Virus record (IMG/VR): IMGVR_UViG_3300029705_000031
DNA length: 64,000 bases
Source of the DNA: a virus
Taxonomy: Duplodnaviria; Heunggongvirae; Uroviricota; Caudoviricetes
Strand: one strand, 5' to 3'
A program made the position numbers and the translations under genes. This document shows positions 3,329 through 64,000 of this stretch, one piece after another. The notes beneath the pieces were generated by a model, which searched no databases, was not told where the DNA came from, and saw only the letters and a program-made list of their open reading frames with translations. Within the stretch, counting starts at the first letter, position 1; each line of letters starts with the position of its first letter.

Positions 3329-3366
3329 AACCGTATAAGACAATTAAGTCTTATACGGTTTTTTTT
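3329..3366. terminator. bidirectional rho-independent terminator between convergent genes
   Basis: stem aaccgtataagac / gtcttatacggtt with A-run upstream and T-run downstream. Confidence 0.7.
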
Positions 3367-4738
3367 AATTAAGTATATCTAACTGATTAAAAATTCTAGT
3401 AATATCAATATAAGGATTGTAAGAATTTAACTCCATAGTTAAAGCTCTTTCATCACCAATTTTTTGATCATCCCATCCATAATACCAATTACCAGGTGCA
3501 GGATTATCTGATAATTCTAATGGATCTGTTTCATTAGAGATGACAAAAATATTAGCATATTCACCAATTTTAAATGCAAAGAAAGCTAACCAAAGTTTAG
3601 TATTTACAGTTGTTCCATATATAGCGTTACAGAATTCATTAAATGTAGTTATATTTGAATCATTACCAACATAAACTTTAGCAGCATCTTTATATTCTTC
3701 CCAGTTATTAGAATTTAAAGTAAATAATCTAGAAGAATTATTTTTGATATCTAGAATAATACGAACTTTTCCGTTGTCAGTATATTTAAATATGGCTGTT
3801 AGATTCTTATTTAAAATACTACTTATGTTAGTCCAGTCATAACTGTCTATTAATAGGTTATTATTATAAGGATTTTTACCTATACTTTTACCTACATTGT
3901 TTAGGAAAGAAATATTATATAATGAACGATAATACAGTTTGTTTGTAATTCCATAAGAACTATATCTTACAGTTACTTTATCAGAATTATCTTCATCTAT
4001 TTCATAAAAATCGTTTATATTATTGAAAATTTCTCTATTTAAAGTACCTTCATATTGTACATAATCATTACCATTTTGTAAATAATAGGTTTTTAGACAA
4101 TCAAATTCAGTAGATTTTTTATATTCAGTTTCAATATCAAAATCATTTTCTATCCATGTAAATGTTCTATTGTCTTCATCTAGACTGAAACATTCATTAT
4201 CATAATGAACGCCATTAATATAAATAGAAACAGAATCGGAATGTATAGGAGTACATGATATGGTAAATGTTTGACCTGTGAATAATTTATCTTCATATGA
4301 ATAAAAACTTACGATGTCTTTATCTTCAATGAATTCTTCAATTGCATTACGAAGATTTATAAGTTCACTTTGAAAAGCTTCAGTTTTTTCAAAACTAGTA
4401 CTTGCTTTATTCCATGCATTAAATAATGCTTCATAAAAGTTACTACCAATTAAACTTAATCGTCTTACTAGATCAGGATTTAATTCTTCATTACCAATAA
4501 TTCTATTAAATCTATCAATAAAATCATGATTTGTATCTCGAACTGCGGTAGTGATAGAAAATATATCATTGATAGCACCTATAACAGTTTTACTCTCAGT
4601 ATTTAAACCCTTACTAAGATCTGGATTAATAGTACTATTCTGTAAATAAGGATTATTCTCAGTAGAAATAGCAAATAACTTTTTTTGTAATGCATATATT
4701 TCATTAAGTTCTTGAGTAGTTAATTCATTAATTGACAT
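3365..4738 (-). CDS. hypothetical protein (457 aa), probable structural module
   Basis: long ORF, first of a co-oriented minus-strand block with short intergenic gaps. Confidence 0.6.
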   Translation of the reverse strand: MSINELTTQELNEIYALQKKLFAISTENNPYLQNSTINPDLSKGLNTESKTVIGAINDIFSITTAVRDTNHDFIDRFNRIIGNEELNPDLVRRLSLIGSNFYEALFNAWNKASTSFEKTEAFQSELINLRNAIEEFIEDKDIVSFYSYEDKLFTGQTFTISCTPIHSDSVSIYINGVHYDNECFSLDEDNRTFTWIENDFDIETEYKKSTEFDCLKTYYLQNGNDYVQYEGTLNREIFNNINDFYEIDEDNSDKVTVRYSSYGITNKLYYRSLYNISFLNNVGKSIGKNPYNNNLLIDSYDWTNISSILNKNLTAIFKYTDNGKVRIILDIKNNSSRLFTLNSNNWEEYKDAAKVYVGNDSNITTFNEFCNAIYGTTVNTKLWLAFFAFKIGEYANIFVISNETDPLELSDNPAPGNWYYGWDDQKIGDERALTMELNSYNPYIDITRIFNQLDILN

Positions 4739-5848: not shown

Positions 5849-7441
5849 TTATTTGTTATTAGGGTTAAAATTCTCATTTTCAGAATATAAAACATCATAA
5901 ACAACAGTTACATCAAAATCAGATTGTATATCAAAACCATTATCCATTTCAAGATAATCCCAAATTAAAATAGGAGTTACATTATCTTTTAAATAATAGT
6001 AGAAATACGTATCATTTTTATATGCAACACCATTGATAAATAGTTTAATACTACTTTCAATAGGTTTATATTTAAGTTCGAAATAAGGTCTTAATACGCC
6101 TTCAATTTCAATTTGTTTATATTCAGTAATAGTATCTTTATAATTAGAATAAACTAAACCAACTTTTTCTTGTAGCTTATTTAATTCATCTTCAGCTTTT
6201 TTAGCATCCATTTTGTATTTGTTAATTAATTTATTAGCAATACCAGTTAATTCATCATGTGGCATAGAATAGATATTTCCATCTAAATCTCCAGTATAGA
6301 AGTTAATACAAGAAATTTTAGATCCTTCACAAATAGTAGTGAATAGGTCATGATTCATTCCATAAACTTCATGAGGCATCATAAATCTTAACGATTTTTT
6401 ATCAGGATTAATAAGGAAAGTTTCATTAATTCCATTATAGGTTATCATACCTTCAGCTACAGAAGATGGGAAATAAACCATAGCATGTTTTTTATCAATC
6501 TGGAATAAACCAACTAATTTTTGTTGTTTTAAAACACCTTGATTTTTATTTTCATTAACAAATCTTACCATCTTAATATCGTTAATATCAAAATTAGAAG
6601 AATTACCAAAATCAATATCTAATATACGAATTAAATAATCATTTTGTTTATTAATTTCATAAAAATACATAACTGAATTATAAAATAATACACAACCAGA
6701 ATCTACAGGTTCAGACATTTGGATCCATTCGCCATTTCTACTAGATGCATAGAATTCATTTTCTTTAGTTACATGTGCCCAAGTATAAGGAATAATGTTG
6801 TAATACTCTCTATTTTCTTTAGGATCGAATATTTTAACACTGCCATCATCTTCTAAAATAGGAAGACCATATTTATCATATTTCTTGGGGAATTCTACTC
6901 CATCTTCCTCATAGTAAGTTATGATAATTCCATCTTTTTTGATTTTATAAGGATAATAACATCCATTAAATATTACGAGAGCATTAGAAACATCAGCTTT
7001 AAAGTTTACATCTAATCTATATTTTCTAGCCCCATCAATTATATCATAGTATAACTTCATTTCAAAATTTACTGGTTTAAGAGATAATCTAGATTTAACT
7101 GCAGATGGACTATCTAAACCATCTCTAGCTCCTATTAAATGTTTAAAACCATAAGCATCAATATATTCACAATCTGGCAGTAAATATAGTTCTTCATTGG
7201 TTAATTTTGGAGCATTTGTAATTTTATCAACGAAATGAATACCAATTTGAGATAGCATAGCTTTTCTATAGTTAATCCAACTAGATCTAGAATTTTTACA
7301 TTTATAATAAATCTCTTTAACATTAACTAACTGGGAGTTAATAGTACTATAATGTTCATTAAAATATTTTAGATGATAAGCTCTACAAAAACTATCTGAT
7401 TTAAACATAATAGTTTGACCGTCCATATATTCTTTATACAT
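5849..7441 (-). CDS. hypothetical protein (530 aa)
   Basis: ORF, 8-nt overlap with upstream gene suggests translational coupling. Confidence 0.6.
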   Translation of the reverse strand: MYKEYMDGQTIMFKSDSFCRAYHLKYFNEHYSTINSQLVNVKEIYYKCKNSRSSWINYRKAMLSQIGIHFVDKITNAPKLTNEELYLLPDCEYIDAYGFKHLIGARDGLDSPSAVKSRLSLKPVNFEMKLYYDIIDGARKYRLDVNFKADVSNALVIFNGCYYPYKIKKDGIIITYYEEDGVEFPKKYDKYGLPILEDDGSVKIFDPKENREYYNIIPYTWAHVTKENEFYASSRNGEWIQMSEPVDSGCVLFYNSVMYFYEINKQNDYLIRILDIDFGNSSNFDINDIKMVRFVNENKNQGVLKQQKLVGLFQIDKKHAMVYFPSSVAEGMITYNGINETFLINPDKKSLRFMMPHEVYGMNHDLFTTICEGSKISCINFYTGDLDGNIYSMPHDELTGIANKLINKYKMDAKKAEDELNKLQEKVGLVYSNYKDTITEYKQIEIEGVLRPYFELKYKPIESSIKLFINGVAYKNDTYFYYYLKDNVTPILIWDYLEMDNGFDIQSDFDVTVVYDVLYSENENFNPNNK

Positions 7442-7758: not shown

Positions 7759-10700
7759 TTAATTATCTATTTCTATTTCATTATTATTGATGGTATTAAT
7801 AACAGCAGTATTGTCAACTTTAACAATATCTACATCTATAACATAGATATTGTTACTTTCAGATCTATAACAATAACGGTTTAAACCACATCTTAAAATA
7901 TCCAATGTAGTTTCAAAATTAGATTCACGTTTCTTTAACTGGAATTCTATGTCATTACCACTAGCAGAAATATCAGTTTTATAACTAGCTTCAGGTCTTA
8001 ATTCAACTACTGATTCAATAATTTCATTTTCAGGTATAATAGGTTCGATAATCAGCCAGTTTTCATCTTCATAAGTTATATCATCGATATATACTCTAGA
8101 AATATCTAACATTTCATATTTGAAATAATCAAATTCACTATTAGTATAACTGCCTTCAGGAACATGTAATTCAATTATCTTATTAATACCTTCAATATCA
8201 AAGAAGAGATCAAGACTAATCTTACCATTTCTAATGGATTTTTCAATATACTTATTAATAGTTTGGACATTACCAGTACTAGTTTTAAAGTTTTTGAAAC
8301 AAACATAGATATACTGAGCCATACTATTTTTAGTATAGTTATTATTTTCATTAACTAACTGAGTATTGTATTTTACAATAGTGTTACCATTGATATCTTT
8401 TAAAGCAGCATTAGTAAAATCTATTTTAGAATACTCTTCATTTAAAGCTAGTTTATTAATAGCTATAGTATAACCATCCATTATATTACCAGTAAAGATA
8501 CCTTTAGCTGCAATACGAATATCATTAACATCCATAACTACAAATAGTAACTGCTGTACAAATTCTTTAGTTTCTTTATTATAGAAATCAACAGCTACTA
8601 CTTCATTTTTATTTAATACACCAATGGTCATGACACCTTCAGCATTAGTTAATTCAGCCTGACCAATAGACATATAAACACCATCAAGATTCTTTATTGA
8701 ATAATAGAAGAAGTTATCATCATCTTTATACTTATTAATAAAGTTTTCATCTAAAGTAGCAGTTAAATTATCATAATAAATAATCTGGTGATTATTCTTA
8801 ACATTATTGTTAAGTAATTTAATAGTAACATCAGTATAATCTTCAGTTAAGGTTTCAATAGGATCACCAGTCTTGGTATCATCATTAAATACATAGAGTC
8901 TTAATATATATTCTTTATCTAATACTAATCCAGTAATATAATCAGCTCTGGAAGATTCTTTATCTAATATATCATCTCTAAAAACATATACGTCAACAGT
9001 ATCGGTAGTTACTTTTTGAATCTGGTTATTATTATAAGTAGCATAAATATCAAGATTAGTTATAATTTCTCCATCAACTAAATAGCTATTGGGAATTACA
9101 TCTAATTTTTTAATTCTCTTACTAGAAACAGGAGATACAAGAATAGACTTGGTATCATAAATATGATCACAATAAATAGCTGAAATTATATAAGAGCCTT
9201 CAGAATCGACTATACCTTCATCATATTTAATAGAACCATCAAAATTAGTTAGAGTTCTAGTATATTCTTCTTCAGTTAGAATTCTCTCATTACCATTTTC
9301 ATAATGAGCAATAACTCTAATAGAATTAAAGATATTATCATTTAAAGTAAAGATATTAGTGTTACTTACAATTCTAATAGATTCGACTTCAATAGCAACT
9401 ACTTCCATAGTAATAGAATCAGAAATTAAATTTCCATTTTCACCTTGATTGAATGTAGCAGTTACATATTGTTTGCCTACATTTACAGTATCAAAATCAG
9501 GTAATTCTTCACCAAATTCATTCTTAAATGTATAATCACAATATTCAGTAATATCAATGTAATCTTCATCAGAATAATAACCTAATACTCTGAAGATAGG
9601 ATAGATATTTTGTTTAATCTTTTGGTCAGATGCATTAGTAGTACTGATAGAAATTTTCTTAAATCTACCATAATAGATATCATCAGTAGTTTCTACTTTT
9701 CTATTAGTATCTAATTTTTCATCTTTAACAATTTTTAACCAACTATTCTTAATTTCATTATTCTCATCTACATTCTTTAACTGAGTGTAGATATTTTCTC
9801 TAACTTCATTAGGATATCTAGTCATGTTAATAATTGCTTTAGCATAATCAGACCAGTTTATTTCAGAATAAATTTCAGCATCTTTTAAAGTAATATGTTG
9901 ATCATCAATCTTTAAATAACGATTGATAATAGAGCGTTTATTACATACAGGAACACGTACACGTCCAAGGTATACTTCAATATAATCTTCACAGATAGGT
10001 ACGCTGTATTCATCTAAATCAATGATACCGTATGAGAAATTAGTTTGTACGGAAGATTCTTCTAAAAATACTAATTCATCTATTATATCGCTATAGTCAT
10101 CAGTATATTTAGTAAACATTACTCCATCAAATACTTTAATTCCATTAATAATAATTTTATTATTTTCTACTAAACTCTTTACATAGAGAGAAAAATCTAA
10201 ATATCTATCATTATTTACAAATTCAAAACTATCATTAGGAATAAATGCTTCATCAATTAAAATGCTATCTACTTCGTCTACAACAATTTCTTCATATTTA
10301 CCAATTTCAGGATTAGATTCTAAAATTTTTTCTATAGCAGCAATTGCAATATCGGTATTTTTAATGACTCTATAGAAACGTTCAAACATGTCTCTATTAT
10401 TACGATAACGATGTTCTTCATATTCATCTTTATAGAGAACACATTTAATAGTATCAAGAATAACTAAATCAGTATTATTAGGAATTCTTTCAATATTGAT
10501 TAAATTTTGGAATTCTTGATTAAAAGCTACATAGTCAGTAATCTTATCTAAATTATGTTTGCAGTAGAAATTATAGGTATCATCAATATTTTTATTTCTA
10601 AAGACAACCTTAGAATTAGGTTTAAGAATACCGATAAATTGAATGTACTGATTACGATCTTCATCATTAACAAAAATGTAATCTACATTATTAATAAGTC

Positions 10701-11928
10701 TATAACCATCAACATAAACTTCTACATCGTTGATAGATTTTACAGGAAGAGGTAAAGAACAACCTGCAACTTTTCTACTATTATCAACTAGAGGAAGAAT
10801 AATATGATTATTTGCATCATATTTAATATATTCTTCATCTTCCAGTTCAGTAGTATTAATAAATTCACATTCAACATGCTTTTTTCTATTAATGATTAAA
10901 TATACATCGTTTTTATTTAAATTATCTTCACTCAGATCTAGAATAAGTAATTTTCTGTAATTAAAAGGAATAAATCCCCAATTATCTACATTAGAAGTTT
11001 CTCTAGTTTCTAGAGCAAATAGAATATCACCTGCATTACAAGTAAAGTTACCATAAGTACCAGCAACTAATACTTTATAAGCTTCATTTTTCTTTACATT
11101 TTCTAAAGGTAAAGATATAATATCTGAGCCAGATCCAATCTTACCAATAGTACCTTTAAAAGTTAAAGCATCTACAAAAGGAATATATTCTTTAATAAAA
11201 GCTTTAGTATTTAATTGGAAGTATTGCTCATCTTTTTCTAAAGAAGATTTCTTAAAAATAAGTAAATTTTCTAAAACAGCAATATCTTCATCTTCATCTA
11301 AAATTTCACCATATCTACCAACATCTTGTTTCTTAATCGTATAAGTTTTAGTATTAACATTATCAATACTTATAGTAGTATAGAAAGAATTACATCTAGG
11401 TTCTTTACGAATTACTACACTGATAATATCTCCAACATTTACTTTGTTTTCATCAATCAAGAAACGTCTACCACCAGTTTTAAAGTTATAAACTTTATCA
11501 CTAGGCATTTCAATATAGTTTTTCTTAGATAATTTTATACCATTTACAAAAACATCAGAGTAGAAATCATAGTTATCTGATGCTAAAGAACTATCGGTAC
11601 AAACAATTAGAATTTTATCGCCATTACCAAAGTTTAGGTAAACAGAGTCATTATTGAAAATATTTTTATAGAGTAATTTTTGTTTAGTTTCAACACTATC
11701 AATATAAACATCGGTTTGATAAACAATGTTTGAAGAAGCTTTTAAGTATCTTCTTATATAGTCAGGATCTTCTTTAATGATCTTATCAAAAGTTTCTTTT
11801 AGTTCTTTTCTAGTAGCGTAGGGGGTAATTTGTTTTTTTAAAGCATCTATAGTAGAGATACTAGTATCTCTATTTTTCATTGCCTCCATAACAATGGAAT
11901 CAAAAGTAACTGACATTCGTTTCAACAC
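7759..11928 (-). CDS. very large hypothetical protein (1389 aa), probable virion structural/baseplate-fibre protein
   Basis: 4.2-kb uninterrupted ORF in AT-rich DNA where stops are frequent; no catalytic motifs seen. Confidence 0.6.
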   Translation of the reverse strand: MLKRMSVTFDSIVMEAMKNRDTSISTIDALKKQITPYATRKELKETFDKIIKEDPDYIRRYLKASSNIVYQTDVYIDSVETKQKLLYKNIFNNDSVYLNFGNGDKILIVCTDSSLASDNYDFYSDVFVNGIKLSKKNYIEMPSDKVYNFKTGGRRFLIDENKVNVGDIISVVIRKEPRCNSFYTTISIDNVNTKTYTIKKQDVGRYGEILDEDEDIAVLENLLIFKKSSLEKDEQYFQLNTKAFIKEYIPFVDALTFKGTIGKIGSGSDIISLPLENVKKNEAYKVLVAGTYGNFTCNAGDILFALETRETSNVDNWGFIPFNYRKLLILDLSEDNLNKNDVYLIINRKKHVECEFINTTELEDEEYIKYDANNHIILPLVDNSRKVAGCSLPLPVKSINDVEVYVDGYRLINNVDYIFVNDEDRNQYIQFIGILKPNSKVVFRNKNIDDTYNFYCKHNLDKITDYVAFNQEFQNLINIERIPNNTDLVILDTIKCVLYKDEYEEHRYRNNRDMFERFYRVIKNTDIAIAAIEKILESNPEIGKYEEIVVDEVDSILIDEAFIPNDSFEFVNNDRYLDFSLYVKSLVENNKIIINGIKVFDGVMFTKYTDDYSDIIDELVFLEESSVQTNFSYGIIDLDEYSVPICEDYIEVYLGRVRVPVCNKRSIINRYLKIDDQHITLKDAEIYSEINWSDYAKAIINMTRYPNEVRENIYTQLKNVDENNEIKNSWLKIVKDEKLDTNRKVETTDDIYYGRFKKISISTTNASDQKIKQNIYPIFRVLGYYSDEDYIDITEYCDYTFKNEFGEELPDFDTVNVGKQYVTATFNQGENGNLISDSITMEVVAIEVESIRIVSNTNIFTLNDNIFNSIRVIAHYENGNERILTEEEYTRTLTNFDGSIKYDEGIVDSEGSYIISAIYCDHIYDTKSILVSPVSSKRIKKLDVIPNSYLVDGEIITNLDIYATYNNNQIQKVTTDTVDVYVFRDDILDKESSRADYITGLVLDKEYILRLYVFNDDTKTGDPIETLTEDYTDVTIKLLNNNVKNNHQIIYYDNLTATLDENFINKYKDDDNFFYYSIKNLDGVYMSIGQAELTNAEGVMTIGVLNKNEVVAVDFYNKETKEFVQQLLFVVMDVNDIRIAAKGIFTGNIMDGYTIAINKLALNEEYSKIDFTNAALKDINGNTIVKYNTQLVNENNNYTKNSMAQYIYVCFKNFKTSTGNVQTINKYIEKSIRNGKISLDLFFDIEGINKIIELHVPEGSYTNSEFDYFKYEMLDISRVYIDDITYEDENWLIIEPIIPENEIIESVVELRPEASYKTDISASGNDIEFQLKKRESNFETTLDILRCGLNRYCYRSESNNIYVIDVDIVKVDNTAVINTINNNEIEIDN

Positions 11929-37334: not shown

Positions 37335-38377
37335 AAAGGACTAATGATGAAATGACTATTGAAGAAATCAAAAATATGGTTAATGGTGAATCATACGATT
37401 TTCTAAGAACTAATCCACATCTTAAGGATAGAATCATTTTTCTTACATTAGGTGGTAGCTATGCCTATGGTACAAATAATGAAAATTCAGATGTAGATGT
37501 TCGTGGTTGTGCTCTTAATAGTGTTAATGATATCCTCGGTATGTCAAATTTTGAACAGGTAGTAAATACAACAACAGATACGACAATCTATAGTTTTAAT
37601 AAATTGATTAAACTCTTAATCAGCTGCAATCCTAACACCATTGAATTACTTGGTTGTAAACCAGAACACTATTTTTACATTACAGATATTGGTAAAGAAC
37701 TAATAGACAATAGAAAAATTTTTCTTTCTAAAAAAGCAGTTGAGGATTCTTTTGGTGGATATGCAACTCAGCAGCTTCGTCGTTTAGAAAATGCAATAGC
37801 TAGAGATAAACTATCACAGGAAGATAATGAAAGACACATTAGAAATTCCATGCAAAGATCTTTAAATCACTTTATTGATAAATATGGAATTTCTGATGGT
37901 AATGGTGTTGAACTCTTTATAGATAAAAGTAATCGTGATGATTTAGATTGTGAAATTTTCTGTAAGATTTACCTTGACAAAATTCCAGCAAGAGATTTTA
38001 CTGTTATGTTAAACTCTCTATCAAATGTAATTAGTAGTTATGGAAAACTAAATCATAGAAATCATAAGAAAGATGATGCACATCTTAATAAACATGCAAT
38101 GCATCTAATTAGACTGTATCTAATGGCTATTGACATTCTAGAAAAAGAAGAGATCAATACTTATAGAGAAAATGATATAGAATTTCTATTAAGTATTCGT
38201 AATGGAAGATATCAAAATGAAGATGGTACTTACCATAAAGATTTCTTTGATATTGTATCTGATTATGAAAAACGTTTAGTATATGCTAAAGAAAATTCTA
38301 GTCTTCCTATGGAGCCAAATATGGAACTTATTGAAGAATTTACAATAGATGTAAATAGGAGGTCATTAGATGTATAA
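37328..38377 (+). CDS. Pol-beta-superfamily nucleotidyltransferase (349 aa), translationally coupled to CCA-adding enzyme
   Basis: hG[GS]x9-13Dh[DE]h signature LGGSYAYGTNNENSDVDVRG near N-terminus; 8-nt overlap with next gene. Confidence 0.5.
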   Translation: MLERTNDEMTIEEIKNMVNGESYDFLRTNPHLKDRIIFLTLGGSYAYGTNNENSDVDVRGCALNSVNDILGMSNFEQVVNTTTDTTIYSFNKLIKLLISCNPNTIELLGCKPEHYFYITDIGKELIDNRKIFLSKKAVEDSFGGYATQQLRRLENAIARDKLSQEDNERHIRNSMQRSLNHFIDKYGISDGNGVELFIDKSNRDDLDCEIFCKIYLDKIPARDFTVMLNSLSNVISSYGKLNHRNHKKDDAHLNKHAMHLIRLYLMAIDILEKEEINTYRENDIEFLLSIRNGRYQNEDGTYHKDFFDIVSDYEKRLVYAKENSSLPMEPNMELIEEFTIDVNRRSLDV

Positions 38378-39713
38378 TGTCTCTTTCAATATTCCAGATA
38401 ATGTGAATGTTATCTTAGATACTTTACATGATAATGGATATGAAGCATATATAGTCGGTGGATGTGTTAGAGATAGTCTGTTAGGATTACAACCAAAAGA
38501 TTGGGATATTTGTACTTCAGCACTTCCACCACAAATACTAGAAGTTTTTAATGATAAGCGTATAATTGAAACAGGTTTAAAACATGGAACAGTTACTATA
38601 GTTCTAGATGACGAACAGTATGAGATTACAACATATCGTACTGATGGAAACTATTCTGATAATCGACATCCAGATTCAGTAACATTTGTTAGTAACCTTA
38701 AAGAAGATCTTGCAAGAAGAGATTTTACTATAAACGCTATGGCTTATAACAAACAAGATGGTTTGATTGACTATTTTAATGGTTATAAGGATTTAAAGAA
38801 TGGTATAATTTCTTGTGTTGGAGATGCTAATGAACGTTTTAATGAAGATGCGTTACGTATTATGAGAGCTTTACGTTTTTCTTCTAGATATGAAATTCCA
38901 ATTGCAGAATCCACACAAGAAGCTATTCATAAAAATAAGGATTTACTTAAAAATATTGCCATTGAACGCATTAATAGCGAATTATGTAAATTGTTACTTG
39001 GTTATGGTGGATCCTATATTTTAGCAAACTATAAAGATGTGATTACAACTATTATTCCAGAATTAAAACCTTGTATTGGATTTAATCAAAATAATCGTTA
39101 TCATGAATACGATGTTTATGATCATATCAGACATGCAGTATACAATTATGGAGGTTCGGATTTAGTAGTAATTATATCACTCTTACTTCATGATATTGGC
39201 AAACCTCATTGTTATACTGAAGACTGTAACGGAGGACATTTTTATGGTCATGGAGTAGTAAGTCATGATATAGCAGAGAAAGTATTAGACAATTTAAGAT
39301 TTGATAATAAAACAAAACATGATGTTCTTGAATTAGTATTATACCATGATTCAACTATTGAACCAACACCAAAAACAGTACGTAGATGGTTAAATAAAAT
39401 TGGTGAAAAACAATTTTTAAGACTTCTTGATATTCGTGAAGCAGATATGTTAGCACACTCCAAAGATACACAGAAGTCTAGATTAGAAAGAAATGATAAA
39501 CTTAGAAAAATTTTAGCTGAAATAATCCAATCTAATCAATGTTTTACTATAAAGGACTTAGCAATTAATGGTAAAGACATTATTGCTATGGGTGTACCTG
39601 AAGGTAAACGTATAGGTGAAATACTAAATACAGTCCTTAATGAAGTTATTAATGAAACTATTGTAAATGAAAGAAAATTTTTATTAGATTACGTATATTA
39701 TAATCTAGTATAG
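38370..39713 (+). CDS. cca: tRNA nucleotidyltransferase (CCA-adding enzyme/poly(A) polymerase family) with HD domain
   Basis: IVGGCVRDSLLGLQPKDWDICT, RRDFTINAMAY head-domain motifs and LLLHDIGKP HD motif. Confidence 0.8.
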   Translation: MYNVSFNIPDNVNVILDTLHDNGYEAYIVGGCVRDSLLGLQPKDWDICTSALPPQILEVFNDKRIIETGLKHGTVTIVLDDEQYEITTYRTDGNYSDNRHPDSVTFVSNLKEDLARRDFTINAMAYNKQDGLIDYFNGYKDLKNGIISCVGDANERFNEDALRIMRALRFSSRYEIPIAESTQEAIHKNKDLLKNIAIERINSELCKLLLGYGGSYILANYKDVITTIIPELKPCIGFNQNNRYHEYDVYDHIRHAVYNYGGSDLVVIISLLLHDIGKPHCYTEDCNGGHFYGHGVVSHDIAEKVLDNLRFDNKTKHDVLELVLYHDSTIEPTPKTVRRWLNKIGEKQFLRLLDIREADMLAHSKDTQKSRLERNDKLRKILAEIIQSNQCFTIKDLAINGKDIIAMGVPEGKRIGEILNTVLNEVINETIVNERKFLLDYVYYNLV

Positions 39714-39727
39714 AAGGAGAACACATA

Positions 39728-42700
39728 ATGGCACAGAATGTAATTCAAAAGGATATTGTTGATATTCAAAAAGACAATATGCTTCAGTATATGATGTCTC
39801 TAATGTATGATAGAGCGATTCCTGATATTAGAGATGGATTAAAACCAGTACAGAAATTTATCCTTTGGAGTTGTTACAGTTCAGGTTTCTTTCCAAATAA
39901 ACCCCATGTAAAGTGTGCTAAGATTGCTGGTGATGTTATTGCTAACTTCCATCCACATTCACTAGATGCAGCTTATGAAGCATTGTGTAGACTTGCTCAG
40001 ACTCATTCTATGAATATTCCATTAATTGATTTTCATGGTGCATGTGGTTCTATTGATGGATCAGGCGCAGCAGCTCATAGATATTGTGTGACTGGTGATA
40101 CCTTAATTAGTCTACCAAATGGTAAATTAAAAAGAATTGATGAACTAATTGAAAATTCTAATGATGATTCAACTATGGATGTAGATTTTGAAGTATTAGA
40201 TTTTAAAAATAATCCAGTACATGTTTCTAAATTCTTTAATTCTGGAAAACATGATATAATCAAGATTAAAACCAGTTCTGGTTGTACTATTAGAGGTAGT
40301 TATAATCATCCTATCTTGTGTTTATATAAAAATCCTACTGATGGTCTACCAGAATTCAGATGGACAACTTTAGATAAAATTGAAACTGGATGTTATGCTG
40401 TTATAGCATCTAAATTCAATAATTCTTTTAATGAAACTATAAGTGAAGAAGAAAAGCTTAAAGCAATTTTCTTTGGTGGAATGGTTTCTGAAGGAGGTTT
40501 ATCTAAAAATCAGAGATACTATAGAGTAAGTTTCTCCAATCAAGATAATGAATACTATAATCTAGTGGAATCTGGATATAAAGTATATCTTGAAGAGAAT
40601 AATCTAAGTAATTTGAATATTCGTATTAATCCAAATGCTCGTGGTGGAGTTAAAGAATTTTGTACTGAAGACAAAAATCTTCATAATTTAGTTAAAGAAC
40701 AAATTGGTGAAGATGCTCATAATAAACAGATTCCTCCCTATGTTCTAAACTCTAATTTAGAAATTCAAAGATGGTTTTTAAAGGCACTTTTTGAAGGAGA
40801 TGGAGGAGTAACATGTCGTTTAGATAAAAGAAGAAAAGATAATGTTACTGGACATGTATTTTATTCTACTTCTTCAACAAAACTTTTGAATGAATTAAAA
40901 ATTCTATTAATGAATTTTGGTATTAGAACTAAAGTTACTAAAGACAGATCTAATTTTAAACTTACAATTTATTCTTTAACTGACATGAAAATTTTTAAAG
41001 AAAAAATAGGATTTTTAAGTGATAGAAAAAATAAAGTATTGAATGAATTAGTAGAAAATAAAGAAATACAAATTACTAAGTCTTATGGTGTTTCTTCTTC
41101 AGATAAAATTCCATATCTTGCCGAATTCATTAGAAATAATAAACTTAGAAATACACATTATTTAAAGTCTCATAGCCTAAATTGTAAACAAGATATAGAT
41201 AAACATAATGATGTAATTAAAGATTCTTTGAGTTATGAAGAATATTTTAAGCTTATGAGAAAACTTGAAGTTTTAGATTTATACCATTATGAAGAAATTA
41301 TTGAAGTTGAAAGACTACCAGAAGAAGTAGTATATTCAATTAAAGTAGATTCTAATGATCATAGTTTTATTAGTAATGGTTTTATTAGTCATAATACTGA
41401 GGCAAAACTTAGTAAATATGGATTAGATATTCTTAGTGAAATCGATAAGGATGCTGTTGATTTTGAAAAGAACTATGATGTAACTAAAGATCAACCAACT
41501 GTTTTACCTGCAGTAATTCCTAATATCCTATTGAATTCTTCAATGGGTATTGCAGGTGGTTATGCTTCTTCAATTCCTCCACATAACATCAAGGATGTAT
41601 GTAATACTGTATGTGAACTAATTGATAATCCTAATATGTCAGTTCAAGATGTAGCTAAGAAACTAGTTCCTGACTTTCCTACAGGTGGTATCTTATGTTC
41701 TAAGAAGGAAATTGAAAAAGCTTACATTACTGGTCAGGGTTCAGTAAAACTAAGAGGTAGAGCAACTATCAATAGAAATAAGAATAACACATCAGAAATT
41801 GTTATTACTGAAATTCCATTTATGACTACAATTGGTCCTCGTATGAGTGGCACATCTACTAATACTGAGGGTGGTTTGATTAATTCCATTGTAGCTAAGA
41901 TTAAAGATGGTACAATTGATGGAATTAAGGATATTCACGATATTTCTGATAAGAATGGTCTATGTATTAAAGTTTTTATCAAGAAAGATTATGACCCTGA
42001 TGTTATTCTAAATCAGTTATACAAGTTCACTCAGTTAGAATCTACTTTTAAGATCATTCTAGTTTGTAAGAATGGTAATTTCTTTAAGGTTTATAACATC
42101 AAGGAAATTCTAACTGAATGGATTGAATTCCGTGTATCTACTATTAGACGTATCATTACACATGATATCAAGAAAGCTAAGTATCGTGAACATATTCTAG
42201 AAGGTCTATTAAAAGCATTAACTGATATCGATACTGTTATTAGTATCATTAAGAAAGCTAATGGAAGAGCTGATGCTAAAGTAAAGTTAGTTAGGAAATA
42301 TGGATTTACTGATTTACAGGTTGAAGCTATTCTTGACATGAAACTTTCTCAGTTAAACTCTCTAGATGGAAAGAAGCTAGAAGAAGAAAAACTAAGTAAG
42401 CAAAAAGAAATTCTAGAACTAAAAGAGAATTGGAAAGAATCCAATATCTATGAAAGAATTAAGAAAGAACAGAAAGAATTTGCTAAAAAATATGGTAGTG
42501 AAAGAAAGACTACTGTAGAAGAGATTGATACTGATATTACTACTGAAGACATTATTGCTGATGAAGATACTTTGATTGTCATTACTCAGGGTAATTACAT
42601 TAAGCGTATTTCAAATGAGTTTAGAACTCAGAAACGTGGTACTCAGGGTATTTCTATTGGTGATAACTCTATCACAGAAATGTTCTCTGCTTCTACTAAG

Positions 42701-43543
42701 GATCATCTACTATGTTTTACTAATACTGCCAGAGTCTATGATTTAAAAGCTTATGACATTAAAGAATCTAAGGATCTTAAAGCTAAGGGTTTAAGAATTG
42801 AAAATTATCTAAATCTAAAAGAAAATGAAACAGTTACTAACATTCTATGTATCAATAATACACAGATGAATGATAATGAATCCTTCCTAGTTTTCGCTAC
42901 TAAGAATGGTATGATTAAGAAAACTAAGTTAGAAGAATTCAATAACATTCGTTCTACTGGTATTATTGCTTTGATGTTAAAGTCTGGTGATGAACTAGTT
43001 TCTGTAAAGTATATTGATACTAGTAAACCTATGCAAGATATCTTGATTTCTACTAAAAATGCTCAGACAGTTAGATATGATCATGAAGAAATCAAAGAAT
43101 TAGGTAGAAATACCTATGGTGTAATTGGTATTAATCTAGAAAATGATGACCGTATTACAGATATGTGTATCATTGAAGATGACGAACAACTAATCTTCTT
43201 TGCTACTAAAAATGGTTTAGGTAAAACTATTCGTATTACTGATAATGTAGAAAAAGTTGATCCCAATACTAAAGAAAAAGTAATCATCAATGATGGTTTT
43301 CCTAGACTAAAACGCTCATCCAACATTAAAGGCAGACTATGCATGAAACTAAAAGAAAATGACGAATTAGTTTCAATGGTAGCTATCAATAATGTAAATG
43401 ACGAACTAATGATTGTTACTGATAGCAAACTATTAGTAGTCAATACTGAAGAATTCAAAGAACCTTTAAAGAGACCTACTTATGGTAAGAAATTAGTTAG
43501 TTTGACTAATGAAGACTATGTAAGAAAGGTGATTCTAAAGTGA
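39728..43543 (+). CDS. type IIA topoisomerase DNA breakage-reunion subunit (GyrA/ParC-like; precursor containing an intein)
   Basis: N-terminal GyrA blocks HPHSLDAAYEALCRLAQ and AAAHRY(active-site Tyr)...TEAKLSKYG split by intein; C-terminal beta-pinwheel-like repeats. Confidence 0.85.
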   Translation: MAQNVIQKDIVDIQKDNMLQYMMSLMYDRAIPDIRDGLKPVQKFILWSCYSSGFFPNKPHVKCAKIAGDVIANFHPHSLDAAYEALCRLAQTHSMNIPLIDFHGACGSIDGSGAAAHRYCVTGDTLISLPNGKLKRIDELIENSNDDSTMDVDFEVLDFKNNPVHVSKFFNSGKHDIIKIKTSSGCTIRGSYNHPILCLYKNPTDGLPEFRWTTLDKIETGCYAVIASKFNNSFNETISEEEKLKAIFFGGMVSEGGLSKNQRYYRVSFSNQDNEYYNLVESGYKVYLEENNLSNLNIRINPNARGGVKEFCTEDKNLHNLVKEQIGEDAHNKQIPPYVLNSNLEIQRWFLKALFEGDGGVTCRLDKRRKDNVTGHVFYSTSSTKLLNELKILLMNFGIRTKVTKDRSNFKLTIYSLTDMKIFKEKIGFLSDRKNKVLNELVENKEIQITKSYGVSSSDKIPYLAEFIRNNKLRNTHYLKSHSLNCKQDIDKHNDVIKDSLSYEEYFKLMRKLEVLDLYHYEEIIEVERLPEEVVYSIKVDSNDHSFISNGFISHNTEAKLSKYGLDILSEIDKDAVDFEKNYDVTKDQPTVLPAVIPNILLNSSMGIAGGYASSIPPHNIKDVCNTVCELIDNPNMSVQDVAKKLVPDFPTGGILCSKKEIEKAYITGQGSVKLRGRATINRNKNNTSEIVITEIPFMTTIGPRMSGTSTNTEGGLINSIVAKIKDGTIDGIKDIHDISDKNGLCIKVFIKKDYDPDVILNQLYKFTQLESTFKIILVCKNGNFFKVYNIKEILTEWIEFRVSTIRRIITHDIKKAKYREHILEGLLKALTDIDTVISIIKKANGRADAKVKLVRKYGFTDLQVEAILDMKLSQLNSLDGKKLEEEKLSKQKEILELKENWKESNIYERIKKEQKEFAKKYGSERKTTVEEIDTDITTEDIIADEDTLIVITQGNYIKRISNEFRTQKRGTQGISIGDNSITEMFSASTKDHLLCFTNTARVYDLKAYDIKESKDLKAKGLRIENYLNLKENETVTNILCINNTQMNDNESFLVFATKNGMIKKTKLEEFNNIRSTGIIALMLKSGDELVSVKYIDTSKPMQDILISTKNAQTVRYDHEEIKELGRNTYGVIGINLENDDRITDMCIIEDDEQLIFFATKNGLGKTIRITDNVEKVDPNTKEKVIINDGFPRLKRSSNIKGRLCMKLKENDELVSMVAINNVNDELMIVTDSKLLVVNTEEFKEPLKRPTYGKKLVSLTNEDYVRKVILK
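40085..41395 (+). mobile_element. intein (437 aa) with LAGLIDADG homing-endonuclease domain, inserted immediately after the catalytic tyrosine codon of the GyrA-like gene
   Basis: block A CVTGDTLISL, block B GSYNHPIL (TxxH), two LAGLIDADG motifs AIFFGGMVSEGG and FLKALFEGDGGV, block G VYSIKVD...ISHN followed by +1 Thr (TEAKL); removal restores AAAHRY-TEAKLSKYG. Confidence 0.9.
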
Positions 43544-52951: not shown

Positions 52952-54379
52952 TTGGAAATAATGAATGAAAATGTTCTTTTACAGGAATCTTACTTCGGTA
53001 AGGATAGTACTCTACTAGAATGTGAAGAATGTATTAAAGCGATGAAAGAAGCTATAGTAGCAGGCAAGAATCCTAACTCTATCAATGAAAAGACTACATT
53101 TGAATCTTTGATAGCTAAAAAGTTCAACTGTGAAAAAGTCTATTTATCTATTTTAGCTGATGAAAGTGGATTGAATGCATATACTGTACCTTTCTATTAT
53201 GAAAAGAATCGTAGTTATGATGATAAGTTTTTTGAACTAGTATCAGATAATAATGGTATACGATATAAGTCTGCTACTGGTAAGACTTTATACATCTATA
53301 TCAATACTTATACCATTAGAAACTATAGTGTCACTAACATCATGGGTATTTTACTACATGAAGTTGGACATAATTTCTTCTATATGAAGGAACAGATACA
53401 AAATCGTAAGTCTAAGCTATTTACAGAGTTTGTACTATACTTAATGAGACTGTTAGATCAATACAATTATGATCCTAGATTAGTATCTGAAGTTGTAAGA
53501 GTTTTAATCAATGAAGGATTGAACTTTAAAAAAGGAATTCAAAAGTCTTCTTATGAAGAAACTAAGAAATTCCTATCTGATAAAGCTTTTGACATCATTA
53601 ATGGTAGATACAAGTCTACCCATACTGGAATTGGTAAAGCTTTCTATACTTTAGCTACTGTTGTAGGTAAGGTTATAACTACTGCTTTTTCTTTAGTAAA
53701 TACTGCAATATATACACTAATGTTCCCTCTATTAGTCAATTCTGCGGCTTATAAGAATCTAGAGAATTCAGCTAAGAAAACTCAGAACTATAATGCTGAA
53801 AAGTTCTGTGATAACTTCGCAGCTTCTTATGGTTATGCATTAGGTGTAGTTGATACTTTCAACTCTTCCTCTAACTTTACTTATTCTAAAAAAATTGCTA
53901 GTAAGATTCCTATTGTTAGAGTCTTAGATTACTATTCTGATGTCTTATTCTATTTCGTTGCTTATATGAGTGACGAACATCCTACTCATCAGAAACGTGT
54001 AACATTTGCTTTAGAGAAATTAAAGTATGAGTTAGAAACTAACAAAAAGAACATGTCTCCTAAACAGATAGAAGAAATCCAGAATGATATCAATGATATC
54101 GAAAAGCTATTAAAGAAAACTCCTTATTTCAAGAAAGCTATAGATAAGCTATTTGCTGGTATTGATGATAGGAGAGATAAAGCTGGTTCTTTAGGTATGA
54201 CTGATGAAGAAATCTATGATTTCGATAAGACTATACTAAAGGATAAAGTTACAACTATCAATAAAGAAGATTTAGGTATACTTTCTTATATGACAGAAGA
54301 CTATCAAAAAGCTATAGATGACTATTTTGAATCTCCTGTGATGGAAATGTTAAATGAATCCTGTATTCTAGAACAATGA
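52952..54379 (+). CDS. putative zinc metallopeptidase (HExxH: LLHEVGHNFF), 475 aa
   Basis: single HExxH motif followed by hydrophobic stretch; otherwise unassigned. Confidence 0.4.
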   Translation: MEIMNENVLLQESYFGKDSTLLECEECIKAMKEAIVAGKNPNSINEKTTFESLIAKKFNCEKVYLSILADESGLNAYTVPFYYEKNRSYDDKFFELVSDNNGIRYKSATGKTLYIYINTYTIRNYSVTNIMGILLHEVGHNFFYMKEQIQNRKSKLFTEFVLYLMRLLDQYNYDPRLVSEVVRVLINEGLNFKKGIQKSSYEETKKFLSDKAFDIINGRYKSTHTGIGKAFYTLATVVGKVITTAFSLVNTAIYTLMFPLLVNSAAYKNLENSAKKTQNYNAEKFCDNFAASYGYALGVVDTFNSSSNFTYSKKIASKIPIVRVLDYYSDVLFYFVAYMSDEHPTHQKRVTFALEKLKYELETNKKNMSPKQIEEIQNDINDIEKLLKKTPYFKKAIDKLFAGIDDRRDKAGSLGMTDEEIYDFDKTILKDKVTTINKEDLGILSYMTEDYQKAIDDYFESPVMEMLNESCILEQ

Positions 54380-55169: not shown

Positions 55170-55207
55170 GAAGAGTATAACCTAAAATAGGTTATACTCT
55201 TTTCTTT
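55170..55207. terminator. bidirectional terminator between convergent genes
   Basis: aagagtataacct / aggttatactctt + T-run. Confidence 0.65.
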
Positions 55208-56324
55208 ATTTAGTTAGATTTATTCTATCAGTTAGTCTAGTAAACAAATTTGGTTTTTTAGGAGTTTTCTTTTTAATCTGTAAAGGTTCTAAATAACTCA
55301 TTGAAGCATAACCTTTTAGATTTTGTATATAACCCCAACCATTATTAGTTTTTTTATTGATATGAACAGTTTGTCCATTTTTTAATGTAGTTATTATATC
55401 ATAGTTAGTACTAGGCCCTTTACGAATGTTTAGAACATCACCTTTGTCTACATTTGTAACTACAAATACCTTACTGCCAGTAACAGGGATTAAATCTATC
55501 TTAGGTGCTAAAGTAAGAAAATTCATAGATACCCAACCATCTAAAGATTCTATATAACCCCAGTTATCATTAGTCTTTTTACTAATAGTTACTACTTTGC
55601 CTCTTTTTAAAGTATCAATAATATAAGAATTGGTATTAGGATTATTACGAACATTTAAAGAAGAATTAGCAGCTACATTTACTACATAGTCTTTATTAAC
55701 TAAAGTAGTTTTGATAGGTTCTTTTTCTAATTTTTCTTCATTAGAAATTACAGTATCATCTCCATCAAAAAAACCAATAGGACGTCCGTAACCAGCAATA
55801 CGATTGTAATCAAGTCTATAAGATTTTCTTTCAACTCCACCACCATTGGCTACGACACCATCATCAATACTAGTATTACCTTCTATAGTATAAACTCTAT
55901 TAGAATCTACTTTATAGACAATACCTACGTGTGCCATCATACTATAACTTAAATCAGGATATAAGAAAAAGATAATGTCACCAACTTTAGGTTCTTTAAA
56001 GATTCTATTCTTAGCCTTAAAGTTGTTATAGCCAACTATACAAGCACAGAATAAATCACCACATAGCATTTCCTTAGCCTTTTTTACATTACCTTTGCAT
56101 AATTCTACCATGATTACTGAAGTAAACATAGCACACCAAGGTTGACCCTGCCAATAAGTTTCACCTACACCAGTATATACACCATAATCTCGATTAAATC
56201 TAGTATAGTTATTATTACCTGCATTTGCTGAGAAATCTTCTAAATTTTCATTGGATAATTTTTCATGATAATTCTCATATTTCAATGCTATATTTACATA
56301 ATCAATTGCTTTAATAATTCCCAT
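55206..56324 (-). CDS. endolysin: N-terminal CHAP peptidase/amidase domain + two C-terminal SH3b cell-wall-binding repeats
   Basis: CHAP Cys GQPWCAMFTS and His MMAHVGIVYKV; two repeats NVRNNPNTNSYIIDTLKRGKVVTISKKTNDNWGYI / NIRKGPSTNYDIITTLKNGQTVHINKKTNNGWGYI. Confidence 0.8.
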   Translation of the reverse strand: MGIIKAIDYVNIALKYENYHEKLSNENLEDFSANAGNNNYTRFNRDYGVYTGVGETYWQGQPWCAMFTSVIMVELCKGNVKKAKEMLCGDLFCACIVGYNNFKAKNRIFKEPKVGDIIFFLYPDLSYSMMAHVGIVYKVDSNRVYTIEGNTSIDDGVVANGGGVERKSYRLDYNRIAGYGRPIGFFDGDDTVISNEEKLEKEPIKTTLVNKDYVVNVAANSSLNVRNNPNTNSYIIDTLKRGKVVTISKKTNDNWGYIESLDGWVSMNFLTLAPKIDLIPVTGSKVFVVTNVDKGDVLNIRKGPSTNYDIITTLKNGQTVHINKKTNNGWGYIQNLKGYASMSYLEPLQIKKKTPKKPNLFTRLTDRINLTK

Positions 56325-59957: not shown

Positions 59958-61034
59958 ATGAGTATTATAAATGCTATACCCCAAATTAAAAGTATAGATA
60001 CTAGTGAATTTGCTAAAATTACTGATTTAAGTGATTGCATGAAAAAATCTGAAGTTTTACAATTATCTTCAGAACCAAATTCAACTACAATTGGTTATGC
60101 AGGACAAATGGCAATTGTAAATACTGATACAGTATATGTTTGTGCTGGTGCTATAACTGACGGTACTACAACTCAATATGTATGGAAGAAAAATAGAAGT
60201 GGCACTGTTGCTGGAGATAATGGTAGTGATCCTCTAGTTTTTACTACAAGTAAAACTATTGATCTTAGTGCTTATGGTTTAGAAACTGGTGATAGTATTA
60301 CTATTGCTTGTGTTAGTGGTGGTAATGGTGGTCAAGCTGGCGGCGGTAATGCACTTAGAGATGAAGTAGGTGGTAATGGTGGAGCTGGTGGATGTGGTGG
60401 TAAAAGTACTGGTAATAGTCATAGTGGAGGTGGAGGAGGTAGTGGTGTAGGATATGGTGCAGGTGGCGGAGGTGGTGGAGGTAGACATTATTATAGTAGT
60501 ACATCTGGCGCCACTAAGTATAAAGCTGGTAATGGTGGAGCTGGTGGAGCTGGTGGAAAATGTGAGGTAAAAACTGTAACATTAACGTCTACGTCTGTTG
60601 CTGTTACTATTGGAGCTGGTGGTACTGGAGGTAGCGGTATTGCTAGTTCTTCTGGTACTACTAGTGCCGATTATACAATTGGTAATGTTGGTGGTACTGG
60701 AGGTACTACATCCTTTGGTAGCTATTTATCAGTTACAGGTGGCGGAGGTAAAGCTGGTGGTAATGGAAGTAGTGGCGATTATCGTAGTCCTAGTACTTAT
60801 GATGATTATTCTTATGGTGGTTATGGTGGCGGCGGAGGAGGCGGTTGGTACTGGACTACTGGAGTAATTGGTTCTCTAAATCAATATGGAGCTGGAAGTA
60901 ATGGACCTGATACTAGTAGTGCATGGGAAACTTATGGTGGTAGAGGAGGCGGTGCTGCTGCTGCTAATGGTGGTACTGGAGGTAATTCTGGCACTGATAG
61001 TGGTTCTGGTGGCGCAGTCTTTATTTGGTATTAA
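59958..61034 (+). CDS. glycine-rich fibre/receptor-binding-like protein (358 aa; long GGxGG runs)
   Basis: GGGAGG RBS; N-terminus MSIINAIPQ shared with 59402 ORF; Gly-rich low-complexity core. Confidence 0.5.
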   Translation: MSIINAIPQIKSIDTSEFAKITDLSDCMKKSEVLQLSSEPNSTTIGYAGQMAIVNTDTVYVCAGAITDGTTTQYVWKKNRSGTVAGDNGSDPLVFTTSKTIDLSAYGLETGDSITIACVSGGNGGQAGGGNALRDEVGGNGGAGGCGGKSTGNSHSGGGGGSGVGYGAGGGGGGGRHYYSSTSGATKYKAGNGGAGGAGGKCEVKTVTLTSTSVAVTIGAGGTGGSGIASSSGTTSADYTIGNVGGTGGTTSFGSYLSVTGGGGKAGGNGSSGDYRSPSTYDDYSYGGYGGGGGGGWYWTTGVIGSLNQYGAGSNGPDTSSAWETYGGRGGGAAAANGGTGGNSGTDSGSGGAVFIWY

Positions 61035-62368: not shown

Positions 62369-63130
62369 TTAGGTATTTTTTAATCTTTCGTCTAGTAAAT
62401 TCATTACAAATTGATAAACTGCATTAGAAGTGACAAGATTATCACTGCCAAAAGTTACTTCATTATCAATACTAAATCCAGTACCATCAGGATTAAACCA
62501 AACATCAATTTCATCAGTAGGTCTAACCTTACTTACTTCAATTCTACTATTGAATTTAAGGTTTTGTACGGAAGCTTTTTTATCCTCCATATCAATAATG
62601 ACAGAAACGATACTATTAACTTCAAATGCATGTTTATAATTACAGGTACAGACGTTTTCAGAGTCTACTAATTCATAATTTTCTCCATCAATTACAATGT
62701 GAGTTAAATCACAACTAGCTACTGGAGTTTTAAAATTGATCTGTAGCTTATTCTGTACGTACATACCAGTAGGTAAAGATAATGTTAATTTTTTATCAGC
62801 GATACTACCATTAACTGTAGCTGCTACAGTACCAGCACCAGCAGTATAAGCTACTTCATATTTTTCAAAAGGAATTAATTCATAAACACCTTTAGAAAAA
62901 CTAGTAGCTTTAAAAGTATCACCAGAACGTTTATAATAAGTCTTTCCACTTACTGCAGAATTATCAGAAGTTACTTGATAGTTAGCATAATCAGCAAAAC
63001 CAGCTTCAGAAATATCAGAGAATTGTTTAAAACAAAAACCATTAGCATCATATAATCTAATAAAAGAAGAACCTCTAACAGCTTTATTATAATCATAAGA
63101 TACTAAACCTTTTACTAAAACACCTGCCAT
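62369..63130 (-). CDS. hypothetical structural protein (253 aa)
   Basis: ORF with AAGGAGG RBS. Confidence 0.5.
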   Translation of the reverse strand: MAGVLVKGLVSYDYNKAVRGSSFIRLYDANGFCFKQFSDISEAGFADYANYQVTSDNSAVSGKTYYKRSGDTFKATSFSKGVYELIPFEKYEVAYTAGAGTVAATVNGSIADKKLTLSLPTGMYVQNKLQINFKTPVASCDLTHIVIDGENYELVDSENVCTCNYKHAFEVNSIVSVIIDMEDKKASVQNLKFNSRIEVSKVRPTDEIDVWFNPDGTGFSIDNEVTFGSDNLVTSNAVYQFVMNLLDERLKNT

Positions 63131-63150: not shown

Positions 63151-63957
63151 TTAATAGTTAGCTAGGGTAGGTTGAGCATTTACAGAAATAGTACCACCAG
63201 TACTATAAGTATATAGAGTTCTAGCAACTAAATTAGTAGTTTTAATACTTACAGAACTTCCACTATCAACAATAATACCATCAACAACTTCATTATTACC
63301 ACCAGTAATGGTATCTATATACATCTGAGATAACTCAGATACTTTAACTGCTGTAATGGCACTATTAACATTGATAATACCTTTGCTAATAAAAGTACTA
63401 GCTTCTTTTAGTTCAATACCAGTATCAGTACTATTAATAGTAATTGTATATCCACTATCAAAAACAACAGCACTGTCAGTAATAGTTATACTATTAGCAG
63501 TTAAGTGTATTCCATTAAACTTTACAGAAACACTGTAAGAAATGGATAAATTATTGATAGTGATATCATAATTATCTCCACTAAAAATAATAGAACCACC
63601 AAAGAAACCAGTTACATTAACGACTTCATTATAAGTTCCATTATCTATAAAGGTAATATATGCATTATTACCATTTAAATTTTTAGGAATTACACTTAAA
63701 GCCTTATTAATAGTAGCATAAGGAGCATCCTTACTACCATCTCCAGTTTCATCATTACCAGATATACCTACATAAATAGTTGCATCTACTAATAGATTAG
63801 GACTTTTTGAACTAACTATATTGTTTATGCTACTATTGTTATTATTACTATTTTCTTTAGTAACAAACCAAACAACTTCACTACCAGAAGGAGCCTCACT
63901 ACCAACATGAACTTCAGGAGGACTAATGTTATTTTCTAAAGCAGTATATATACCGCT
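63151..63957 (-). CDS. tailspike-like protein, 5'-truncated (no start codon; reading frame runs into the terminal palindrome); N-terminal region has pectin-lyase-fold signature GDGSKDAPYATINKAL
   Basis: in-frame translation from stop at 63151..63153 up to an in-frame stop created inside the palindrome at 63958..63960; no ATG/GTG/TTG after that stop. Confidence 0.5.
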   Translation of the reverse strand, partial: SGIYTALENNISPPEVHVGSEAPSGSEVVWFVTKENSNNNNSSINNIVSSKSPNLLVDATIYVGISGNDETGDGSKDAPYATINKALSVIPKNLNGNNAYITFIDNGTYNEVVNVTGFFGGSIIFSGDNYDITINNLSISYSVSVKFNGIHLTANSITITDSAVVFDSGYTITINSTDTGIELKEASTFISKGIINVNSAITAVKVSELSQMYIDTITGGNNEVVDGIIVDSGSSVSIKTTNLVARTLYTYSTGGTISVNAQPTLANY

Positions 63958-64000
63958 TTAGAAAATAACATTAGTCCTCCTGAAGTTCATGTTGGTAGTG
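63897..64000. repeat. 104-nt near-perfect palindrome (48-bp arms, central gtatatatac also self-complementary; single a/c central mismatch) abutting the window end
   Basis: reverse complement of 63953..64000 equals 63897..63944 exactly. Confidence 0.9.

Follow-up and report, generated by a model that had tools for sequence, protein, structure and literature searches.

A 104-nt palindrome at the end of a contig from a large uncultured phage is most probably a fold-back chimera and not a hairpin telomere

The window analysed here, a stretch of 64,000 nucleotides (IMG/VR record IMGVR_UViG_3300029705_000031), is part of a large uncultured phage and ends in a near-perfect palindrome of 104 nt. The palindrome is truly present in these letters, yet it reflects an artefact at the contig's end rather than a property of the phage: with a probability of about 0.86, the stretch from 63957 to 64000 is a fold-back (inverted) chimera attached to the end of the contig and does not belong to the phage genome. 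A preliminary description of this DNA had offered an assembly or chimeric-read artefact of the fold-back type as one of two readings of the palindrome, and this reading is supported by eight contigs that run through the site to a start codon.

The arms of the palindrome (63897-63948 and 63949-64000) are reverse complements of 52 nt each, are separated by no spacer and pair at 51 of the 52 positions. The sole mismatch between them lies at 63943 (A) and 63954 (C), which gives a place to the A/C pair near the centre that had been noticed before. The exact arms of the terminal palindrome are 63897-63942 and 63955-64000; the arms 63897-63944 and 63953-64000 described earlier are reverse complementary, but calling them exact at these coordinates was two bases too generous. 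The fold energy of the single-stranded 104-mer is -52.8 kcal/mol (shuffled sequences, -6.4 +/- 1.9 kcal/mol; z = -25, 0 of 200 shuffles as good), and the runner-up inverted repeat in the final 2 kb of the window is 28 nt long and pairs at 71%. Fold energy and the absence of equals in the preceding 2 kb exclude a chance origin. Since the palindrome reaches the final base of the window (64000), its length is fixed by the point at which the sequence stops. Exact-pattern scans of IMG/VR for the fold-back junction and for the unique flank returned no match. Two scans of a JGI metagenome collection that lacks the JGI contigs L001 and L005 described below, one for the junction and one for a pattern common to the native and the fold-back forms, gave no match either.

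For the comparison with other assemblies, an exact-protein look-up was performed with the gene next to the palindrome (62369-63130, minus strand), which placed this product on 20 contigs; ten of these 20 were examined, and a near-identical protein of 295 aa was found among them; the product of another window gene (52961-54379, ATG form) was used for a further exact look-up. At least eight contigs (L001-L004 and L006-L009), 99.9-100% identical to the window, read through the site; they were drawn from two ENA assemblies and from seven JGI samples that contributed one contig each. In all eight, the match to the window ends at exactly 63956 and is followed by unique, non-palindromic sequence, and all eight carry a complete ORF of 295 aa upstream of the neighbouring gene, with the purine-rich ribosome-binding site GAAAGGAAAG about 9 nt before the ATG. 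Across the divergence point, the coding strand of these contigs reads ...GTTACATCTG/GCGGTATATATACTGC... (the slash marks the point of divergence); beyond 63956 it reads ATGGGTGAAGCT...CTAGTTACATCTG/GCGGTATATATACTGCTTTAG..., and the native continuation carries ...GTTACATCTGGCGG.... The loci L001 and L014 lie in a contig of 173,938 bp which shares 100% identity with the window along 21 kb and runs about 115.6 kb beyond the junction. According to the preliminary description, a hairpin terminus would be refuted by unique sequence continuing the reading frame to a proper start codon, and such sequence was found, in independent assemblies and not in long reads.

The outer part of the left arm (63897-63940) is identical to L001-L004, L006, L008 and L009, while the mirrored stretch has no counterpart in the eight read-through contigs and is common to the window and one further contig (L005, see below) only (Table 1). 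Between the two lies a native imperfect palindrome with an exact part of 10 nt (GTATATATAC). The fold-back junction reads ...ATACCGC/TTTAGAAAA..., so written that the slash marks the join, which lies 8 nt beyond the centre of symmetry with the native mismatch retained. Position 63954 holds the native C, whereas a mirror of 63943 would have put a T there; the switch from native to mirrored sequence therefore took place between +6 and +9 relative to the centre. The window contains no second copy of the 16-nt site. It does contain 63 other palindromes of equal quality, about one per kb, and the native site is thus an ordinary one. The stability of an intramolecular snap-back at this site is -0.1 kcal/mol, and so weak a snap-back favours pairing between two fragments.

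Table 1. Features at the end of the window (positions of the window; the strand is given for features of the coding frame).
Feature	Position	Strand	Comment
Native part of the 295-aa tail-protein gene	63151..63956	-	Last two bases of codon 28, codons 29-295 and stop
Outer left arm, native, within the tail-protein coding region	63897..63940		Template of the mirror copy
Native 16-nt imperfect palindrome, GCAGTATA/TATACCGC	63941..63956		Centre 63948/63949; probable seed of the fold-back; last native bases of the contig
Non-native mirror copy	63957..64000		Exact reverse complement of 63897-63940; junction 63956/63957
In-frame TAA upstream of the tail-protein frame	63958..63960	-	Made by the mirrored sequence; no true codon of the phage

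The gene interrupted by the fold-back codes for a tail protein. In the window, its minus-strand frame is open from 63957 to the stop codon at 63153-63151 (268 aa), and the first ATG, GTG or TTG occurs only at residue 211 (63324). Inspection of the frame bore out the earlier statement that it is closed by a stop in the mirrored arm and has no upstream start codon; the native codon at the position of this TAA is Ser27 (TCT) of the 295-aa protein. The full gene corresponds to L001:9093-9980, in which position 9175 equals window position 63956, and the contig lacks 82 nt of its 5' end (27 codons and 1 nt). A protein search returned homologues of 270-300 aa. The best of these, P0001 and P0002, show 45-48% identity and start with MAEAILVKG... 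and MGEAILAKG..., respectively, and in the alignment their conserved ...LITSG... motif falls on the opening residues of the window ORF. This alignment suggests that about 27 residues are missing and that the true coding sequence would extend a few bases beyond the centre of the palindrome. The restored N-terminus (MGEAILAKATRPIDEMPISGSPNLVTSGGIYTAL) aligns with P0002 from residue 1, and independent relatives with N-terminal homology from residue 1 are 297-298 aa long; homology from the first residue indicates that the read-through version is the real gene. To judge from the assembled sequences, the tail-protein gene is intact in the genome of the phage.

A word-indexed protein search found relatives of the tail protein at no more than 48% identity. 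The truncated product matches PHROG 4577 ("tail protein", E = 5.5e-15), and is predicted to fold as an all-beta repeat, with pLDDT exceeding 90 from residue 59 onwards. Foldseek matches of the model were weak (none with E <= 0.001) and consisted mostly of right-handed beta-helix enzymes and phage tailspikes or fibres; a sequence search of the PDB with the tail protein gave no meaningful match. The label of a tailspike beta-helix given to this gene before is therefore plausible, PHROG 4577, the beta model and the weak Foldseek matches supporting it weakly and leaving it unproven.

The window codes for DnaB-like and Dda-like helicases, a ribonucleotide reductase, a split type II topoisomerase, a tRNA nucleotidyltransferase, an SbcD/gp47-like nuclease and a CHAP+SH3 endolysin, and has a G+C content of 28.8%. 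The nearest phages in GenBank, which include the jumbo Bacillus phages BpSp and AR9, share less than 40% amino acid identity in the topoisomerase subunit, and megablast of the final 3 kb against GenBank phages gave no match. Taken together, the window and the L001 contig cover some 180 kb. Window genes that were looked up also occur on two contigs of 0.2-1 Mb, and the genome may therefore exceed 200 kb. The phage was seen at about 99-100% identity in more than 10 JGI and ENA samples, and a second strain (L018, 98.7% identity with indels) is present in the same ENA assembly as the 100% identical contig L002.

Several other genes of the window deserve mention. The GyrA/ParC-like topoisomerase subunit of 1,271 aa (39728-43543, plus strand) is apparently interrupted by an intein: among the Pfam hits of an identical product, Intein_splicing and LAGLIDADG_3 lie between two DNA_topoisoIV segments, and the PHROGs matches fall into two stretches. 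A protein of 358 aa encoded among the tail genes (59958-61034, plus strand) contains long glycine-rich runs (GGNGGAGG, GGGGGGG and similar) and has no Pfam match; the G+C content of this stretch is 37%, compared with 29% for the window. A tRNA nucleotidyltransferase resembling the CCA-adding enzyme is encoded at 38370-39713 (plus strand), yet ARAGORN found no tRNA gene in the 64 kb. The ORFs 39-3323, 3365-4738, 5849-7441 and 7759-11928 (1,094, 457, 530 and 1,389 aa, respectively) showed no significant match to PHROGs or Pfam.

One further contig carries the fold-back. L005 (JGI 3300023371, Ga0216340_10036688) is 7,904 bp long, is 100% identical to the final 7,904 bases of the window and opens with the identical 104-nt fold-back at the very base at which the window ends. 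Since the two share both the fold-back and the terminal base, the end of the window is the end of a contig. A residual gene call of 57 aa left by the fold-back matched L005 alone in an exact look-up. The tally is thus two contigs with the fold-back versus at least eight that read through, and apart from L005 no terminal fold-back was found at the ends of the 23 loci fetched. Contigs of this phage break at many positions across many assemblies, which makes a break near 63956 unremarkable. A recurrent break point was observed in the CHAP+SH3 endolysin gene (55206-56324, minus strand), where contigs of at least three assemblies end between 56040 and 56097 (L002 and L005 end at 56097, L003 at 56040, L015 and L018 at 56054); the contig ends in this stretch carry no terminal fold-back.

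An off-centre join with a kept mismatch is the signature of a 3' end that was primed on the opposite strand at a short palindrome. In one DNA molecule or more, such a 3' end, at ...TATACCGC (63955/63956), would anneal to this palindrome on a same-sense strand, which may be its own 5' part or a sister fragment, and a polymerase would extend the paired end by copying the preceding sequence backwards. As the primer keeps its own bases, the A/C mismatch would survive and the join would come to lie 8 nt past the axis. The polymerase may have acted during end-repair, amplification or another step of library construction; we infer this step, and likewise a low abundance of the fold-back junction. Reads from the chimeric molecule would then supply the assembler with junction-spanning k-mers, and at a break in the graph the contig would be extended along the chimeric path until the sequence ended or the path rejoined its own reverse complement.

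Some observations count against the proposed fold-back chimera or sit uneasily with it. The arm of 52 nt implies k = 47 (the last novel k-mer starts at 63954 and the contig ends at 64000), or k = 46 when the vertex at which the path rejoins is taken as the end of the contig; to our knowledge, 47 is not a usual final k of an assembler, and the length of the arm therefore counts against the explanation. Alternatively, the arm may have been set by the end of a read or by one short insert, itself a palindrome of 104 nt. The ordinariness of the site and a snap-back of only -0.1 kcal/mol also count against it, as they leave the choice of this particular palindrome unaccounted for. Finally, one fold-back with one 52-nt arm in two contigs is less comfortable for a random library chimera if the two libraries are independent.

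Products of this kind have already been described in the literature. Chimeric reads from NGS library preparation that join an original strand to its inverted complement, start at nearly perfect palindromes of natural origin and retain the mismatched bases have been reported (PMC10908179), and among chimeras formed during MDA more than 85% were inverted, and in more than 70% of cases the join showed 2-21 nt of complementarity (PMC1855051). The present case resembles the PDSM model (BMC Genomics 2024, PMC10908179) in its short native palindrome, its kept A/C mismatch and a join just beyond it. Those artefacts were noticed in targeted sequencing of human DNA, where they took the form of soft-clipped reads and false variants, whereas the one described here is built into the end of a metagenomic contig and is known from contigs. 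As in MDA chimeras, a displaced 3' end would prime on a strand of the same sense via microhomology (Lasken & Stockwell 2007, PMC1855051); unlike these chimeras, which usually have an intervening deletion, the turn is immediate and has zero spacer.

The other reading of the preliminary description, a linear phage genome ending in an N15-type, covalently closed hairpin telomere that was sequenced through, is refuted by the read-through contigs, the 16-nt native site and the off-centre join, and we consider it next to impossible. A long near-perfect palindrome does sit at the end of the contig, and reading through a closed hairpin, as in N15, PY54 or phiKO2, would also yield a terminal palindrome. 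The hairpin telomeres of these phages require a protelomerase, and every copy of the genome ends at its target, which in N15, phiKO2 and PY54 is dyad-symmetric and roughly 40-56 bp long. Here, the same strain continues for about 115 kb past the site and seven further contigs read through it, the putative end falls within an intact and conserved tail gene, 82 nt from its start, and the native site is 16 nt long, imperfect and exact over 10 nt, so that a long dyad-symmetric target is lacking. Protelomerases cleave with a 6-bp stagger, and the read-through of a hairpin is thus expected to be a perfect mirror outside a few central bases; at the present site a native base is retained at +6 and the join falls at +8/+9. 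Scans of the 26 window ORFs of at least 280 aa with PHROGs and/or Pfam revealed no protelomerase, the window representing 64 kb of a genome that measures 180 kb or more; the closest relatives, jumbo Bacillus phages, show less than 40% identity. In contrast to N15, PY54 and phiKO2, the window thus shows a 16-nt site, an off-centre join, more than 115 kb of genome beyond it and no protelomerase detected in the window. Hardly more credible is one end of an invertible tail-fibre segment of the Mu G or P1 C type, switched by a DNA invertase. The site is near the 5' end of a tail-protein gene, and the crossover sites of Mu and P1 lie near the 5' ends of tail-fibre genes. However, an inversion would place the distal end of the segment, and not the mirror image of the neighbouring sequence, next to the constant part, the 16-mer is single-copy in the window, the native locus in L001 has no long inverted repeat that involves the site, and no recombinase was seen among the neighbouring genes.

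A real but minor molecule formed in vivo, that is, a snap-back or inverted duplication made by template switching or fold-back priming at the quasi-palindrome, is unlikely. It could be a by-product of replication or recombination or a defective genome, perhaps promoted by a recurrent nick or break near 63956, and its minority junction would have entered the assembly. The junction structure is the same for a polymerase step in the cell and in the tube, the window and L005 share an identical junction and arm length, and the phage carries T4-like replication and recombination genes (the Dda-like and DnaB-like helicases and the SbcD/gp47-like nuclease). Against this, the fold-back is absent from at least eight assemblies of the same strain, its product destroys a structural gene, there are about 64 equivalent palindromes per 64 kb with no specific break site seen, and the two fold-back contigs, 100% identical over 7.9 kb, may share reads. 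Moreover, hairpin nucleases cleave such fold-back structures, and the phage encodes a homologue of these enzymes. Quite unlikely, too, is the more specific proposal that a nick or double-strand end recurs near 63956 and that its 3' end snaps back on the (TA)4-centred quasi-palindrome and is extended in infected cells; if true, minority palindromic genomes (inverted-dimer or hairpin-capped) would be sufficiently common to turn up in the assemblies of two datasets. In vivo fold-back priming beside DNA breaks gives rise to large palindromes in Tetrahymena rDNA and in gene amplification in yeast and tumours. These share with the window end a short central inverted repeat with mirrored sequence on both sides; they are long, replicating and abundant, whereas here 44 nt are mirrored and the intact arrangement is dominant across assemblies. 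A purely algorithmic error, in which the de Bruijn graph was folded at the palindrome and the junction was in no read, is very unlikely, although the fold-backs of the window and L005 stop at the same base. The k values known to be in use in metagenome assemblers are 21 or more, and the exact native palindrome of 10 nt (16 nt with the mismatch) is far shorter than this, which makes an algorithmic fold-back improbable. The 44 mirrored bases also need k-mers across 63956/63957 that do not exist in the native sequence, and no other terminal fold-back occurred among the 23 loci despite about one such palindrome per kb. In favour of an algorithmic error, palindromes are described as causing inverted loops in bidirected de Bruijn graphs, with handling that depends on the assembler (bioRxiv 10.1101/2022.01.20.477068).

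For quality control, the fold-back chimera at 63957-64000 should be trimmed from the contig, the end of which is uninformative on the physical ends of the phage genome. An annotator who trusted the palindrome might read it as a hairpin telomere or a terminal repeat and might call the tail gene a pseudogene. A mismatch kept near the centre together with a join a few bases beyond the axis is diagnostic in such cases, as it points to a primed fold-back and not to a resolved telomere.
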